Of a DNA stretch of 64,000 bases, positions 4,723 through 61,464 are shown one piece after another (within the stretch, counting starts at the first letter, position 1; the number at the start of each line of letters is the position of its first letter). The DNA comes from Candidatus Staskawiczbacteria bacterium (GTDB taxonomy: Bacteria; Patescibacteriota; Minisyncoccia; Minisyncoccales; Staskawiczbacteraceae). The notes beneath the pieces were generated by a model, which saw only the letters and a list, made by a program, of their open reading frames with translations, ran no database searches and was not told the origin of the DNA. The DNA is taken from NCBI GenBank assembly GCA_023245155.1, contig JAHFKV010000001.1, forward strand, positions 527,323 through 591,322. Direction: 5' to 3'. The position numbers and the translations under genes are program-made.

Positions 4723-5151
4723 TTACTCAACCTTTCGCTTGCTGTAGAAATCCATCAGAAGTACGCTGGCGACTGCTCCACTCGCAGTGGTGGCAATTAG
4801 CAGCAAGGACACTCCAAACATGAATTGCTCATGAACCTGATAAAGTTGATGCAAATACATGGCAATGAATAAACAGGCCATTATCCATGAGGCGAGCAAC
4901 CCTAGCGAGCCGATTGTCATGCACAAGAACAGTTTCGTCACGACGTTCAAACGGGGGTCTGTAGGCCACAACAAAAGAACAAATCCTGCCATGGCCAATA
5001 CTATCCCGACAGCAAATCCCAACAAAATCCACTCTGCCCGTTGAGCGGAATTGGGGTCGAAGGGGTCGGCAAACATTCCCTCGAAGGACAACCCAACGAA
5101 GAGACCGCCAACCAAAATACTAATCAAAGCGAGATTTTTGCGCGACAGCAT
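4723..5151 (-). CDS. GC-rich small membrane protein (4 TM), probably acquired
   Basis: 142 aa, ~50% GC versus ~38% background; AGGAG Shine-Dalgarno-like motif 9 nt upstream of ATG (CTTAGGAGTAACTAC-ATG), unlike native genes. Confidence 0.5.
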   Translation of the reverse strand: MLSRKNLALISILVGGLFVGLSFEGMFADPFDPNSAQRAEWILLGFAVGIVLAMAGFVLLLWPTDPRLNVVTKLFLCMTIGSLGLLASWIMACLFIAMYLHQLYQVHEQFMFGVSLLLIATTASGAVASVLLMDFYSKRKVE

Positions 5152-12276: not shown

Positions 12277-12342
12277 GCTCTAACTATACACCCTTTGTAT
12301 GATTATGTCAAGTATCTCTGACACGGCTTGGGGGTGGCCCTT

Positions 12343-21220: not shown

Positions 21221-21234
21221 TGCCGTATTTTAGC

Positions 21235-24529: not shown

Positions 24530-24546
24530 GATTTAATACTACAGTT

Positions 24547-24586: not shown

Positions 24587-24715
24587 GCATTGAGTTCTCT
24601 GGTGGCGACTACCTACTCTCGCGTTCATCACACTACCATCGGCCTTGGGGTATTTCACTTCTGTGTTCGAAATGGGAACAGGTGGGACAACCCCGGTATA
24701 ATCGCCACCACAGAA
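24587..24715 (-). rRNA. rrf: 5S ribosomal RNA
   Basis: Reverse complement matches 5S consensus (CCCACCTG..CCCATTTCGAACACAGAAGTGAAA..GATGGTAGTGTG..GCGAGAGTAGG), helix I pairing TCTGTGGTGGCG/CGCCACCAGAGA. Confidence 0.9.
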
Positions 24716-24787
24716 CTCAATATTCTGTGGTTCATATATGTAAGTTTAAATACCTAAAATCTGTATCTATAAACTCACGCTAAAAAA

Positions 24788-28237
<3,450 letters not shown>

Positions 28238-28370
28238 TATTTTCTTGCGTAAGTAATAGATACAGATTTTATGTATCTGATGAACTTATATATATGCTTT
28301 GATTACCTTTTATCCTGTTAAATAAGACCCTTCTTAAAATTAACAGAATAGCAAATTTTCAACGTACTTG

Positions 28371-28568: not shown

Positions 28569-29258
28569 TCAATGCTTATGATTAATTTTTTCCCACACAT
28601 CAGCAATCACTTCTTGCGCAGTTTCTTTGCCGCCCAAACCAATAGCAATAGCTATTCCCAAGCCCAGGGTACCAACAATCCCCCATACCATGGCCATATA
28701 CAATGTTTTCACTAATTCGCTGTTTGGCAATAACTGTTCCAAAATTAAAAAAATCGTAAAAATCCAAATCGCCCATCGCACAATGGAACCGGCAAGATAA
28801 GCATGGCCGATTTTCATCCGTTCCACGCTCACCCTGATTACTTTTTCAATAATGTCAGAAATAATCACGGCCACAACGAAAATCAGAGAAGCCACCACCA
28901 CGTTCGGCAGATAATCTAACACCTGGGTAAGAATCGTTCCAAACTGGGCCAAGTGCAAAATATCCACGGCAATCAAAAGCGACAAAATCACAAACACCCA
29001 CTTGAAAATTGCTCCAATGAATTCTGCCGGGTGTACATGAATATTTGCCTTTTGCAAAGCATGCTGCCAGCCTTCTTTATCAAATAACGTATTAAACTTT
29101 ATCGACTTTAAAATTTCTGTGACAATCTTTCCAATCCCCACAGAAATTAAATACCCTATCACAAAAACGACGATTGCCAATATCAGCCTTCCCACAAAAC
29201 CTACGGCGTCTTGTAAAAACGGCTGAATAACGGCTAGCGACCAATCGTTATAGTCCAT
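28569..29258 (-). CDS. Polytopic membrane protein with conserved TM-helix repeats (mechanosensitive-channel-related family)
   Basis: 229 aa, ~6 hydrophobic helices, preceded by the conserved leader cassette (copy b). Confidence 0.5.
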   Translation of the reverse strand: MDYNDWSLAVIQPFLQDAVGFVGRLILAIVVFVIGYLISVGIGKIVTEILKSIKFNTLFDKEGWQHALQKANIHVHPAEFIGAIFKWVFVILSLLIAVDILHLAQFGTILTQVLDYLPNVVVASLIFVVAVIISDIIEKVIRVSVERMKIGHAYLAGSIVRWAIWIFTIFLILEQLLPNSELVKTLYMAMVWGIVGTLGLGIAIAIGLGGKETAQEVIADVWEKINHKH

Positions 29259-29306
29259 GAATTTGGAACAAAGCGAGAAATTCGCAATAGTTGCGACACC
29301 TTACTT
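29256..29306 (-). repeat. Conserved 5'-UTR cassette, copy b
   Basis: Minus-sense AAGTAAGGTGTCGCAACTATTGCGAATTTCTCGCTTTGTTCCAAATTC-ATG. Confidence 0.6.
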
Positions 29307-31823: not shown

Positions 31824-31858
31824 AGCGTGATAGTACTATCATTTAATCGCATTTTCAA
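31824..31858 (-). promoter_or_regulatory. Promoter TTGAAA-17-TACTAT-6nt-AUG (leaderless layout) for ychF
   Basis: Plus tttcaa 31853-31858, atagta 31830-31835, six nt (CACGCT) then the ATG at 31823: TSS predicted at the A of AUG. Confidence 0.5.
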
Positions 31859-33595: not shown

Positions 33596-34048
33596 TTATA
33601 CGATCCTCAACACTTTTATTATTACTTTTTTGGCGCCGGCAGTGTAATCAAATGTATCGCCGGTTTTTTTTCCCATTAATTTTTGTCCAAATGGCGATTC
33701 GTATGAAATTTTATTTTTCAAAATGTCAGCTTCGGTTGGCGATGTAATCTGATATTCTTCTTCTTTACCGGCAAACAGCATTTTCACCCTTGAGCCAATC
33801 TGGATTTTTCCGTCTTCTACTTTATCTTTAATGACTGCAACGCTAATAGCATTTTCCAGTTGTTCAATCCTGCCCAGTAAAAAACTTTTCATGTTGCGGG
33901 CTTCGTGGTATGCCGAATTTTCTTTCAAATCACCAAAAGCGGCTGCTTCAGCAATCAACTTAACTATCCGCCTCATTTCAGTGGTTTTTAATTCTTTCAG
34001 TTCATCTTTTAGTTTTTTCAAACCCTCTTTGGTAAAATACTCTGGCAT
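33596..34048 (-). CDS. greA: Transcription elongation factor GreA
   Basis: N-terminal coiled-coil (EGLKKLKDELKELK), C-terminal FKBP-like domain, ~150 aa. ATG at 34048 inside conserved leader cassette copy c. Confidence 0.85.
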   Translation of the reverse strand: MPEYFTKEGLKKLKDELKELKTTEMRRIVKLIAEAAAFGDLKENSAYHEARNMKSFLLGRIEQLENAISVAVIKDKVEDGKIQIGSRVKMLFAGKEEEYQITSPTEADILKNKISYESPFGQKLMGKKTGDTFDYTAGAKKVIIKVLRIV

Positions 34049-34138
34049 GAATTTTGAGCGAAGCGAGAAATTCACTTCAGAAATAAGGCTAAACTATACC
34101 GTTACTTTGAGGGCTTATTTCTGTTGCGACACCTTATA
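34046..34138 (-). repeat. Conserved 5'-UTR cassette, copy c (with 47-nt hairpin insertion in the loop)
   Basis: AAGGTGTCGCAAC[AGAAATAAG...CTTATTTCT]GAAGTGAATTTCTCGCTTCGCTCAAAATTC-ATG. Confidence 0.55.
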
Positions 34139-34194
34139 GTATACTGATTTCTTACAAATTTTCAAGACAAGAAAAAAACCACAGTACAAAGAAA

Positions 34195-34345
34195 GTGGCT
34201 TTGAAATGGAGTCAACGGAGCTCGAACCCGCATTTACCGATCACACCCCTAGTCTCTCGAAAAATGCGAAGACGTCTACTCAGCGCATTGTCTATAACCA
34301 GGGTTAGCAACCAGCATGTCTTTCTCCTTTTAGACGATGGCCCCT
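34195..34345 (-). ncRNA. Candidate ncRNA C2 with tRNA-like 3' end (T-arm + acceptor-like strand), class undetermined
   Basis: Minus-sense ends ..AUGCGGGUUCGAGCUCCGUUGACUCCA: T-stem GCGGG/UCCGU, loop UUCGAGC, then UGACUCC-A. No matching 5' acceptor strand found, so not a canonical tRNA; possibly tmRNA-like or a tRNA-like 3' module. Confidence 0.3.
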
Positions 34346-34468
34346 TAAGAACAAAACTGGAACTGCCAGCTATCCCGCCGATCGGAGCATCTATCCGACA
34401 CAAGGCAGTAAGGGTCGGATTGAATATAGACCGGCAGTCTGGTTTCAAGTTCTGGCAGCTCCAGCGTT
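34346..34468 (-). ncRNA. Candidate small hairpin RNA C1 (~125 nt; SRP-RNA- or 6S-like architecture)
   Basis: Own promoter TTGCAA-16-TAAACT (34474-34501). 5' end GCUGGAGCUGCCAG pairs with 3' end CUGGCAGUUCCAG followed by UUUUGUUCUU. Nested helices CUGCCGGUC/GAUCGGCGG and AUCCGAC/GUCGGAU with internal loops. Confidence 0.4.
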
Positions 34469-34473
34469 TTTCC

Positions 34474-34501
34474 AGTTTAATACTATTAACAAAAATTGCA
34501 A
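34474..34501 (-). promoter_or_regulatory. Promoter TTGCAA-16-TAAACT for ncRNA C1
   Basis: ttgcaa 34496-34501, agttta 34474-34479. Confidence 0.45.
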
Positions 34502-34529
34502 GAGAAAAAACCGCCTGGGCCAAGCGGTT
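34501..34529 (-). terminator. Terminator of the 16S transcription unit (AACCGC-CTGGGCCAA-GCGGTT + U6)
   Basis: Minus-sense hairpin then UUUUUUCUCUU, ~425 nt downstream of 16S 3' end. Confidence 0.6.
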
Positions 34530-34952
34530 CTTAGATGAGTGAGTGTGGACCGAAGTCCACGATGAAACTAACTGGAAAGAACAAAAAATAATGAAATGTC
34601 CCACTGAAAGGAGCCCGGCGTCGCCCAATCGCCGAAGCCATCAATCAGCGGGACCGGAAATATTCTTTGTGATAAAAAAATACTTTCGGTCCCACTGATT
34701 TTCCCTTCCAGAGCGATCATAGCAAAAGCCATGATCCTTGTCAATAACTAACCACCTTTCTGTTTAGTTTCTTAAAGTTGTTCCGAATAGCGGGTTTTCT
34801 GCCGAACCGCGCTAAACGCATATCAGTTATAAGTTACTAACCTTCGCCAAAGCTTCGACCCCCGCTGAGCGGGAGGCGCCTTAGCGAAAATTATTCCGCC
34901 TATAACTTAGTCAACGCTCAATATTCTGGATAAATCCAAAATATTTAAAAAA

Positions 34953-36405
34953 ATGATCCACGAGCAGCTTCCGCTACCCGTGCCTTGTTACGACTTAGCC
35001 CCTCTTACTGAATCTAGCTTAGGACCTGTAAGGGTACTTCGGCTATCCCCAGCTTGCTTGGCTTGACGGGCGGTGAGTACAAGACTCAGGAACGTATTCA
35101 TCGCCACGTAGCTGATTGGCGATTACTAGCAATTCCAGCTTCATGAGGGCGAATTTCAGCCCTCAATCCGAACTGAGACCGGCTTTGGTGGGATTATCCT
35201 CCAGCTTGCGCTTTCGGTCCCATTGTACCGGCCATTGTACCACGTGTGCAGCCCAGGACATCAAGGGCCATGCTGATTTGGCGTCATCCTCACCTTCCTC
35301 CCAATTATCTCGGGCAGTCCCCTGTGACATGTAAAACACAGGGCAAGGGTTGCGTTCGTTACCCGAATTAACGGTACGTCTCAAGACACGAACTGACGAC
35401 AACCATGCAGCACCTGCCCAACTGTCTTGCGAAGTACTACTTTCATAGTATGGTCAGTTGGGTTTCTAGTCCTGGTAAGGTTCTTCGTTTGTTGTCGAAT
35501 TAAGCCACATGGTCCACTGCTTGTGTGAGTCCCCGTCTATTCCTTTGAGTTTTAAACTTGCGTTCGTACTTCCCAGGCGGGATGCTTAACGCGTTAGCTT
35601 CGCCACTGGCAGGGTCGACACTGCCAATAGCCAGCATCCATCGTTTACAGCGTGGACTACAAGGGTATCTAATCCTTTTTGCTCCCCACGCTTTCGTTGT
35701 TCAGTGTCAGGGTCGCCCCAGCAAACTGCCTTCGCTTTTGGTGTTCCCGATGATATCAACGGATTTCACCCCTACTCCATCGGTTCCGTTTGCCTCTAAC
35801 GCCCTCTTAGTCGAGCAGTATTCTAAACAGCTCAAAGGTTAAGCCGATGAGGTTTAATTTAGAACTTACTTGACCACCTACCAACCCTTTACGCCCAATA
35901 AATCCGGGTAACGCTCGGGGATTCTGTATTACCGCTCCTGCTGGCACAGAATTAGGATCCCCTTATTCATCTGGTACAATCAATAACTTTTTCCCAGATA
36001 AAAGATGTTTACACCCCGAAGGGCTTCATCCATCACGAAATGTCGCTCCGTCAGACTTTCGTCCATTGCGGAAGATTCTCGACTGCAGCCTCCCGTAGGA
36101 GTATGGCCCGTGTCGCAGTGCCATTCTTGGGGGTCGCGCTCTCACGCCCCCTACCCGTCATCGCCTTGGTGGGCTTTTACCCCGCCAACAAGCTGATAGG
36201 CCGCGGACCATTCACAAAGCGCATTGCTGCTTTACCCTTGCGGGACTATGGGAAATTACCCCGTCTTTCGACGAGCTGTGCCCCACTTTGCGGTATGTAC
36301 CCACGTGTTACTAAGCCGTTCGCCGGTGCCTTGCGGCCCCTTGACTTGCATGCCGGTATCCACATTTCCAGCGTTCACCCTGAGCTAGGATCAAACTCTC
36401 AAAAT
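34953..36405 (-). rRNA. rrs: 16S ribosomal RNA (3' tail without canonical anti-Shine-Dalgarno)
   Basis: 5' ..AGAGTTTGATCCTAGCTCAGGGTGAACGCTGG; 530 loop, 1390-1400 region (GTACACACCGCCCGTCA) and 1492 region (AAGTCGTAACAAGG) present in reverse complement; helix 45 GGAA loop intact. Then GGAUCAUUUUUUUA in place of GGAUCACCUCCUUA. Confidence 0.95.
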
Positions 36406-36902
36406 TGATGCCAGTTGAGTACTGGCAAACTTATTCGAAACAACTTTAAAAAACTAAATGAATAATAGTTTAGTCACAAGCACTTATTTTTGGACACAAT
36501 AAAAAGGTGGGGGTGAGTTGAGTTGTGGAAGAGCCCACGACTAACCCCAAGTTAGCATTGGATCTCTGATAATCAGCCTCAACCCACCCTTTTCCCTGAA
36601 AATTCAGGGACAGGTTGTCTAGGCTTGCGCCCAGCAACTTTTAAGTTGGTCCCGTCCATCCAACTTCAAAGTTGCTTCTCCACGAGAGACAACAACCTGT
36701 CCTTGACTTAATGTTCAAAAATAAGTGCTTGGTGTTCACTATTATTCTAGTTACTTACCTTCCCCAACACAAGGATGGTTTTCTCGTATTGGGATGCCAT
36801 ATTCAGTTATCAAGTTACTCTCCATAAAAATATCCACGACAATATCCGGAAGATACTCTCGTGGATACTCTCAAAATTAAGTTGTAATCTTATGTGTAAG
36901 TG

Positions 36903-36931
36903 TATTCTAGCTGAAACAAAATGAATGTCAA
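36903..36931 (-). promoter_or_regulatory. 16S promoter TTGACA-16-TAGAAT
   Basis: tgtcaa at 36926-36931, attcta at 36903-36908; ~490-nt structured leader. Confidence 0.5.
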
Positions 36932-37130: not shown

Positions 37131-37442
37131 TTATTTCTTTCTCTTGTCCAATTCTTGGGCCTTCTTACGCATCCCGTGCAACAACACATCAACTTTCCGT
37201 TCCACTTTTAACACCCAAACCCTGAATTTTGAAAGAAGTTTTTGTAGCCACACCTGTTTATGAAAAAAATCAAAATACAAACTCTTTATTTTTTTTTCTA
37301 TCTGGGCAATGGTTTCATGCTTTTTTAATCCATGATGTCCGTTTTGTGGCAGTTGCACTAACACTGGAATTTTTCTGGCCAAAATAAGGATAAATCCGGC
37401 AGCACTAATTAAAAAAATAATGAATGCAATTAATTGAATCAT
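37131..37442 (-). CDS. Small membrane protein (103 aa), hypothetical
   Basis: N-terminal TM MIQLIAFIIFLISAAGFILILA, basic remainder; preceded by leader cassette copy d. Confidence 0.45.
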   Translation of the reverse strand: MIQLIAFIIFLISAAGFILILARKIPVLVQLPQNGHHGLKKHETIAQIEKKIKSLYFDFFHKQVWLQKLLSKFRVWVLKVERKVDVLLHGMRKKAQELDKRKK

Positions 37443-37492
37443 GAATTTTGAACGAAGTGAGAAGTTCGCAATAGTTGCGACACCTTATTCGA
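37440..37492 (-). repeat. Conserved 5'-UTR cassette, copy d
   Basis: Minus-sense CGAATAAGGTGTCGCAACTATTGCGAACTTCTCACTTCGTTCAAAATTC-ATG. Confidence 0.6.
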
Positions 37493-38928: not shown

Positions 38929-38968
38929 GTCTCTACCCTAAAGTCAATACATATGATACAGTAGTCCA

Positions 38969-39910: not shown

Positions 39911-40147
39911 TCATGGCGCCTTCTTTTCTTGGGTCTTCGCCTGCTCGGCTTTTTCCCGGGCCTCTTCCATTGGCCGCAAGAAATAAAACCAGAAACCCGC
40001 CACCAGAGCCACGATTAATAACGCTCTCATGGCGTCTCTGGCATTCAAGCTACTGAACATATGGCAAATCCTTCCCAAAAAGAGAAAAAACATATTCGGC
40101 CTGCCACAGCCATGGGCGAAATGCCCTTTGACAACGAACTTACCCAT
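39911..40147 (-). CDS. Small membrane protein (78 aa), hypothetical
   Basis: TM helix ALLIVALVAGFWFYFL, Lys/Glu-rich tail; ATG sits 4-5 nt after a -10 element (leaderless layout). Confidence 0.4.
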   Translation of the reverse strand: MGKFVVKGHFAHGCGRPNMFFLFLGRICHMFSSLNARDAMRALLIVALVAGFWFYFLRPMEEAREKAEQAKTQEKKAP

Positions 40148-61443: not shown

Positions 61444-61464
61444 TAAGTATATTCTACATACATA

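Follow-up and report, generated by a model that had tools for sequence, protein, structure and literature searches.

Loss of the anti-Shine-Dalgarno core from the 16S rRNA gene of a Staskawiczbacteria-related bacterium and Shine-Dalgarno-independent translation initiation

In this study, we analysed a 64,000-nucleotide (nt) stretch of contig JAHFKV010000001.1 (GenBank assembly GCA_023245155.1), called the window below, whose 16S rRNA gene carries UUUUU at the 3′-end positions of CCUCC, the core of the anti-Shine-Dalgarno (anti-SD) sequence, which docks mRNAs and is present in almost all bacteria. Since the anti-SD is absent from the gene and Shine-Dalgarno (SD) motifs are absent upstream of the protein-coding genes, translation initiation must be SD-independent, a conclusion that is well supported. 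Taken as a whole, it is very probable that the window derives from a Parcubacteria-group organism with a functional 16S rRNA, in which the decay of CCUCC to UUUUU is fixed across the clade, initiation is SD-independent and the pre-rRNA is read through into a trailer. Positions are window coordinates, and L numbers denote loci and contigs of the comparison.

The 16S rRNA gene and its tail across the lineage

34946-36406, minus strand: full-length 16S rRNA gene (Rfam RF00177, 1337 bits, model positions 1-1533)
34959-34982, minus strand: helix 45, intact, with a 10-bp stem and a GGAA loop, GGCACGGGUAGCGGAAGCUGCUCGUGG (alignment to the Rfam consensus)
34946-34958, minus strand: 13-nt 3′ tail GAUCAUUUUUUUA, homologous to Escherichia coli GAUCACCUCCUUA (RF00177 alignment; relatives)
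34949-34953, minus strand: UUUUU in place of the anti-SD core CCUCC (RF00177 model positions 1526-1530)

The match to RF00177 is that of a full-length bacterial 16S rRNA, and the consensus end GGAUCACCUCCUUu pairs in the alignment with GGAUCAUUUUUUUA (34959-34946). The tail has the canonical layout of 13 nt found in E. coli, whose sequence was taken from Amin 2018 (PMC6107228), with all four anti-SD C residues changed to U (34953-34949). The decoding-centre landmarks CCGCCCGUCA and AAGUCGUAACAAGG and the GGAA loop of helix 45 were all found, and helix 44 is regular though shortened in the alignment of the 16S 3′ end. As judged from the sequence, the gene is functional, having kept the decoding centre, helices 44 and 45 and the canonical tail length, and the anti-SD is truly absent from it. 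A sequence-only reading of the window had reported at 34940-34965 a tail without the anti-SD next to an intact helix 45. Both points hold: the minus strand reads GCUCGUGGAUCAUUUUUUUAAAUAUU, and the equivalents of positions 1526-1530 lack CCUCC.

Comparison with relatives showed that the loss is lineage-wide, a check that the sequence-only reading had proposed. A helix-45 pattern silent on the tail, run against a single representative genome of each GTDB species, gave 120 loci, nearly all from Patescibacteria/Parcubacteria. CCUCC after helix 45 is missing in 107 of them, including Minisyncoccus archaeiphilus, and the 13 that keep the anti-SD (Magasanikbacteria-type, Chloroflexia, Clostridia and a few others) all read GGAUCACCUCCUUU. 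A second scan, of metagenomes, gave relatives at 88-96% 16S identity, which have GGAUCA-U7/8-A3-6 and are invariant through GGAUCA-U7-(U/A)-AA before diverging abruptly (alignment A1). The invariance of GGATCATTTNTTT in this alignment is partly built in, its first 13 positions having been fixed by the search pattern; the independent evidence on the tail comes from the tail-independent scan, the AA after the pattern and the tails of L034 and L077. These two Candidatus Staskawiczbacteria metagenome-assembled genomes (MAGs) have near-identical tails, with one U-run a base longer, and their 16S is 93% identical to that of the window over the approximately 135 nt compared. The sequence-only reading had called anti-SD loss rare, which is right for bacteria in general and wrong for this lineage, in which only 48% of Parcubacteria keep the motif (PMC9297842).

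The source of the window is placed, within the same joint judgement as the whole reading and at its high probability, in Patescibacteria, the candidate phyla radiation (CPR), as a relative of Candidatus Staskawiczbacteria within the Parcubacteria group. This placement follows from the likeness of its tail to those of the Staskawiczbacteria MAGs, from synteny with L034 (16S, greA, ychF, a pseudouridine synthase and a mechanosensitive (MS)-channel-like protein, the four proteins being 52-69% identical in amino-acid sequence) and from the taxonomy lineage, in which Staskawiczbacteria falls within Parcubacteria. Among species-representative genomes, the closest full-length 16S sequences, including that of the cultured M. 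archaeiphilus, are only about 80% identical.

Two tail shapes were found among the anti-SD-less loci. U-rich tails keep the canonical layout, as GGAUCAUUUUUUUA in the window's clade and GGAUCAUUUAUUUA in a Minisyncoccus-like clade. The second shape is more diverged and has a small hairpin after GGA, for example UUCAauuUGAA, UUCCgauuGGAA or CUCAaauUGAG; a hairpin of at least 4 bp is present in 68 of 90 diverged tails compared with 35% of shuffles. In this hairpin-tail class (about 90 loci, L002-L121), a 4-7-bp stem-loop begins 3-9 nt past GGA, downstream of helix 45, and its stem variants (UUCA/UGAA, UUCC/GGAA, CUCA/UGAG, UUUUGUC/GACAAAA) are consistent with compensatory change. It is very probable, again as part of the joint reading, that the UUUUU tail is fixed across the window's clade and the other variants over most Parcubacteria.

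Initiation signals upstream of the genes

Gene starts were crude longest-open reading frame (ORF) calls throughout. GGAGG is found upstream of none of the 54 window ORFs of at least 100 amino acids (aa), and GGAG, GAGG or AGGA at −18 to −4 precedes four of them, not above control positions, in agreement with the earlier statement that the native genes lack SD motifs. An unbiased k-mer comparison of −20 to −1 with −70 to −25 returned GAGG, AGGA, GGAG, AGGAG and GGAGG as the top words in the 13 anti-SD-positive control loci, ATAAT, TATAA and AATAA in the 107 anti-SD-less loci, and TAAGA, AATAA and ATAGT in the window. The scan recovered the positive controls and gave no SD enrichment in the window or in the relatives' loci. 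Similarly, only the controls have a trough in hybridisation energy with the canonical tail (−3.3 kcal/mol at −12); the profile is flat in every anti-SD-less class, the window included. In the metagenome set, the top k-mers CTAACT/AACTAA were considered as a ribosome-binding motif and rejected, being the conserved 16S trailer before one recurrent gene.

In the explanation that we propose, the anti-SD core would have decayed from CCUCC to UUUUU through four C-to-U changes, ribosomes would be unable to form the SD helix, and mRNAs would for this reason carry no SD. Three routes of start choice may operate. The first would use an A-rich, G-poor, weakly structured stretch just before AUG; between about −14 and −2, the sequence before the starts is rich in A and poor in G, and −1 is a pyrimidine. 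The second would be termination-reinitiation at overlapping or tightly packed genes, and 19 of 47 same-strand neighbours in the window are at most 5 nt apart or overlap. In the third, leaderless mRNAs beginning at the AUG itself would serve a minority of the genes that stand first in an operon, ychF and prfA among them. The promoter features concerned are as follows.

31824-31858, minus strand: ychF promoter TTGAAA-17-TACTAT, −10 element 6 nt before ATG 31823 (leaderless candidate)
38957-38968, plus strand: prfA −10 element TGaTACAGT, 6 nt before ATG 38969 (leaderless candidate)
12277-12311, minus strand: promoter of a CAP-domain gene, TTGACA-17-TATAGT-6-ATG (leaderless candidate)
24530-24541, minus strand: mreC −10 element TAGTAT, 6 nt before ATG 24529, without a good −35 element
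61444-61456, minus strand: ftsZ −10 element TAGAAT, 7 nt before ATG 61443
21221-21232, minus strand: lysS −10 element TAAAAT, 6 nt before ATG 21220

This geometry, which L25 also has, makes leaderless initiation plausible for ychF, prfA, the CAP-domain gene, lysS, mreC and ftsZ. The promoter scan reproduced the spacings that the sequence-only reading had given for ychF and mreC. The remaining example of that reading, an ORF starting at 40147, is doubtful: its TTGACA falls within the terminator hairpin of the preceding gene, and the best −10 element, TATAAA, has an 18-nt spacer and is only 4 nt away from the ATG. In some close relatives, ychF and prfA keep the 6-nt spacing despite diverged sequence. 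Some ychF orthologues keep the −10 element at 6-9 nt from the ATG (exactly 6 nt in L218, L199 and L210), and prfA in L216 and L131 has TGcTATATT, likewise 6 nt before the ATG. In L137, L224, L175 and L152, ychF begins 0-3 nt past a tRNA 3′ end (e.g., ...ggtccacATG); tRNA 3′ processing would there yield a leaderless or near-leaderless ychF mRNA, as in mitochondrial tRNA punctuation.

When all anti-SD-less loci were pooled, −10-like hexamers peaked 6 nt before the start (34 vs 5.2 expected, P = 6e-17). We rejected this pooled peak as a trait of the window's clade, since splitting by tail class assigns it to the hairpin-tail lineages (TANNNT at 6 nt, 37 observed vs 9.8 expected), which show the strongest leaderless-type −10 peak. 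In the window and its U7 clade (243 ORFs), TANNNT at 6-8 nt was observed 33 times against 20.1 expected, and in the window alone 11 times against 5.3; strict −10 hexamers in 189 clade ORFs were not significant (P = 0.08). TANNNT at spacings 0, 3 and 6, inflated by in-frame stop codons, was excluded. The positional signal in the window's clade is modest, and leaderless use is probably not the dominant mode there; the leaderless starts that the sequence-only reading had proposed have partial support, as plausible cases at single genes.

The split between tail classes admits another view, that the anti-SD-less Parcubacteria have two different replacements that go with the form of the 16S tail. 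Lineages with U-rich tails, the window's included, would have A-runs against the start codon, few leaderless genes and a U-tract serving as a weak docking partner. Hairpin-tail lineages would have a small, possibly covarying hairpin in the anti-SD place and common leaderless mRNAs, some of them made directly by tRNA 3′ processing. We consider this unlikely.

The U-rich tail might also act by itself as a replacement anti-SD, whose weak pairing with A-runs ahead of the start codons would still position the 30S subunit. We hold this to be quite unlikely. In U-rich-tail loci, AAAAA is found near the start in 23.5% of genes and far from it in 2%, and hairpin-tail loci show no such enrichment (9.6% near vs 11.4%). 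AAAA rises from about 3% to 7-9% at −8 to −5 among 383 ATG genes of U-tail contigs, and AAAA motifs in some anti-SD-less organisms were also seen by Amin 2018 (PMC6107228). The window itself, however, has no AAAAA enrichment (12.5% near vs 17.5% far), and the A-runs peak at −8 to −2, nearer to the AUG than an SD helix permits. Moreover, hybridisation of the real tail gives a flat upstream energy profile, five A-U pairs contribute negligible thermodynamic stability, and A-rich leaders are generic among SD-independent bacteria such as Bacteroidota.

The trailer and the 3′ end of the 16S rRNA

34921-34944, minus strand: variable trailer hairpin AUAUUUUGGA-UUUA-UCCAGAAUAU, right after the tail (fold)
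34858-34876, minus strand: trailer hairpin with a decoy CCUCCC (34876-34871) (fold; not conserved in relatives)
34763-34790, minus strand: trailer strand of the 16S processing stem, CUAUUCGGAACAACUUUAAGAAACUAAA, pairing with leader 36430-36458
36430-36458, minus strand: leader strand of the 16S processing stem (fold)
36904-36931, minus strand: 16S promoter TTGACA-16-TAGAAT, 11/12 matches (promoter scan and sequence)

A trailer of about 170 nt runs from the tail to a 25-30-bp leader-trailer stem (36458-36430 with 34790-34763). The stem and its compensatory changes are kept in all 12 relatives with usable flanks (13 tried), and on this sequence evidence it is the usual RNase III-type processing stem. 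The pre-rRNA would be read through the U-tract into this structured trailer, and the 16S 3′ end would presumably be trimmed back to about its canonical position. The hairpin at 34944-34921 is probably spacer rather than mature rRNA, because relatives have different hairpins there (L235, L232, L034, L077) or none (L216, L200). The abrupt divergence past the tail, together with the replacement or absence of this next hairpin in relatives, suggests a mature 3′ end near the canonical position. The 16S leader (36407-36900, minus strand) spans about 490 nt from the promoter to the mature 5′ end and has several strong hairpins; its direct repeat GUAACUUGAUAACUGAAUAUG recurs in the trailer as GUAACUUAUAACUGAUAUG (approximately 34836-34818).

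The processing stem decides against helix 45 and GAUCAUUUUUUU being an intrinsic terminator that ends the 16S transcript, the 23S not being downstream. A terminator scan flags 34982-34959 with the T-run, and the 16S and 23S genes are separated by 6.7 kb. Nevertheless, such a terminator is very unlikely: the U-tract begins 5 nt past the stem, the tail matches the canonical 13-nt tail position for position, and the leader-trailer stem, 90-190 nt downstream, needs read-through. Since this conserved stem lies further downstream, transcription passes the U-tract, and the candidate terminator of helix 45 and U7 was rejected.

A displaced anti-SD was also weighed, a scenario that the sequence-only reading had named as speaking against its own view: a roughly 76-nt intervening sequence following GGAUCA would be excised and the 16S body joined to CCUCCC at 34876-34871. 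CCUCCC is indeed present 76 nt downstream, insertions are common in CPR rRNA genes, and the 23S gene of the window contains a group I intron. We rejected this excision model as extremely improbable, since CCUCCC is base-paired inside a trailer hairpin, no CCUCC is present at the equivalent site in the closest relatives (L216, L235, L232, L034 and L077), CCTCC occurs within 250 nt in only 5 of 105 anti-SD-less trailers and at scattered positions, no SD motifs are available as pairing partners, and Rfam detected no intron there.

Finally, although rRNA genes are frequent break or mis-join sites in metagenome contigs and L001, an independent assembly of the same organism, stops within the 16S, the chance that the tail stems from misassembly, from a chimera or from a 16S pseudogene is negligible, given a high-scoring, full-length 16S, an identical tail across many independent assemblies and species-level relatives, a trailer flank that pairs with the leader of the same gene, and downstream synteny kept in L034.

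Several points weigh against the joint reading. The mature 16S 3′ end is predicted from the sequence, and the tail might be longer. Longest-ORF starts blur upstream signals, yet the same calls recovered SD motifs in the controls; the anti-SD-positive control set was small (34-49 ORFs) and taxonomically mixed. Leaderless use in the window's clade is predicted from promoter geometry. Some anti-SD-less contigs (L127, L153, L168, L182 and L191; L125, L126, L174 and L199) hold genes with a textbook AGGAGG, and within the window the ORF at 4723-5151 (minus strand), a 142-aa membrane protein, has UAGGAG 9 nt before its ATG. Over the anti-SD-less contigs, GGAGG lies near the start in 16 genes and further upstream in 2. 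Two SD-bearing families recur, one of a membrane protein of about 113 aa with agcacGGAGGugcu upstream and the other of 140-155 aa. These SD-bearing genes may be recently acquired or mobile.

Gene neighbourhood and comparison with known systems

24780-28245: 23S rRNA, with a group I intron
25075-25515: group I intron in the 23S, 441 nt, without an ORF (Rfam)
24600-24709: 5S rRNA
34744-34716, minus strand: promoter TTGACA-17-TGcTATGAT in the 16S-greA spacer
34700-34643, minus strand: perfect 22-bp hairpin in the 16S-greA spacer
approximately 34527-34505, minus strand: terminator-like hairpin in the 16S-greA spacer
34480-34345, minus strand: rod-like 136-nt hairpin (−53 kcal/mol) in the 16S-greA spacer
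34344-34207, minus strand: 138-nt stretch with a weak tRNA-like match, a G3.U-type acceptor and a GGUUCGAGC T-loop

The window (42% GC) holds the housekeeping genes cysS, dnaB, recR, a dnaX-type clamp loader, serS, lysS, mreC, PBP2, ychF, greA, rpsB, tsf, prfA, L25, L31, gap, eno and ftsZ, and four tRNA genes. Its rRNA operon is split, with greA, ychF, the pseudouridine synthase, other genes and an opposite-strand tRNA-Ala between the 16S and the 23S, an order shared by L034. A stretch of about 540 nt that separates the greA promoter from the 16S trailer (34200-34745, minus strand) has no convincing ORF and looks structured and transcribed. Rfam at relaxed thresholds gave no credible match in this spacer; the only match to it in the fetched relatives is 69 nt at 77% in L216, and in L034 the 16S-to-greA distance is only about 220 nt.

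Three minus-strand genes share a 5′ leader: the MS-channel-like protein just upstream of the 23S (29258-29300), an ORF of 103 aa that precedes tRNA-Thr and the 16S (37442-37484), and greA (34047-34150). Its two complete copies are nearly the same over about 45 nt (UAAGGUGUCGCAACUAUUGCGAAYUUCUCRCUUYGUUCNAAAUUC-AUG) and hold a small UCGCA/UGCGA hairpin, the place of which is taken in greA by a 45-nt insert. The true start of greA is probably the ATG at about 34047 rather than the GTG at 34075. The shared leader is absent from all fetched relatives.

The loss of the anti-SD described here is an already published lineage trait of Parcubacteria and not a one-off oddity. The CCTCCT motif was found in only 48% of Parcubacteria, overlapping with the group that lacks uL1 (Tsurumaki et al., 2022, RNA 28:1041, PMC9297842), and the SD-scarce organisms without CCUCC in a 2024 PLoS One survey (PMC10783764) include Campbellbacteria, Wolfebacteria, SR1 and Peregrinibacteria. 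The window resembles the anti-SD-less Parcubacteria (PMC9297842) in its group within the superphylum, the lack of CCUCCU at the 16S 3′ end, the scarcity or absence of SD motifs, and a reduced genome and ribosome. No rplA (uL1) was found among the approximately 40 Pfam-scanned ORFs, an uninformative absence as the window covers only part of the genome. The published Parcubacteria work gives only the presence or absence of the motif; added here are the tail GAUCAUUUUUUUA, of canonical length and with C-to-U decay, the split between U-rich and hairpin tails, and the analysis of upstream signals. Further descriptive additions are the long structured trailer and an apparent difference between close and distant Parcubacteria in their reliance on leaderless mRNAs.

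The window thus adds one more genome to a very large bacterial radiation that translates without the SD interaction. Gene calling in CPR bacteria will be misled by start prediction based on ribosome-binding sites, and the finding is relevant to the expression of CPR genes in other hosts and to initiation on minimal ribosomes. Experimental access is open through M. archaeiphilus, a relative that is in culture and has a tail of the same kind.

Anti-SD loss is also known from other phyla, in Carsonella, Blattabacterium, Chryseobacterium, Mycoplasma and others (Lim 2012; Amin 2018, PMC6107228). Organisms without the anti-SD were also without SD motifs (Amin 2018, PMC6107228), with which the result for the window agrees. 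As in the endosymbionts and Flavobacteriia of that study (PMC6107228), the anti-SD and SD are lost together, the loss is lineage-clustered, and no complementary motif replaces them. Those phyla are unrelated, however, and their losses are scattered within families, whereas here the loss covers most of a very large radiation.

SD-independent initiation of the Bacteroidota type reportedly combines an A-rich, G-poor stretch just before the AUG with the absence of SD motifs, and both properties recur here. Most Bacteroidota keep CCUCC and sequester it by ribosomal proteins. In the window, by contrast, the sequence itself is gone: the 16S alignment has no CCUCC that could be retained and sequestered.

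Literature searches returned no dedicated study of leaderless translation in CPR bacteria. In leaderless-rich bacteria such as Actinobacteria and Deinococcus (group C of GeneMarkS-2), the −10 element is said to lie about 6-7 nt before the starts of first-in-operon genes; these bacteria keep the anti-SD and use SD motifs for other genes. A −10 placement of this kind is found here at single genes, with a modest signal in the window's clade and a strong one only in the hairpin-tail Parcubacteria.

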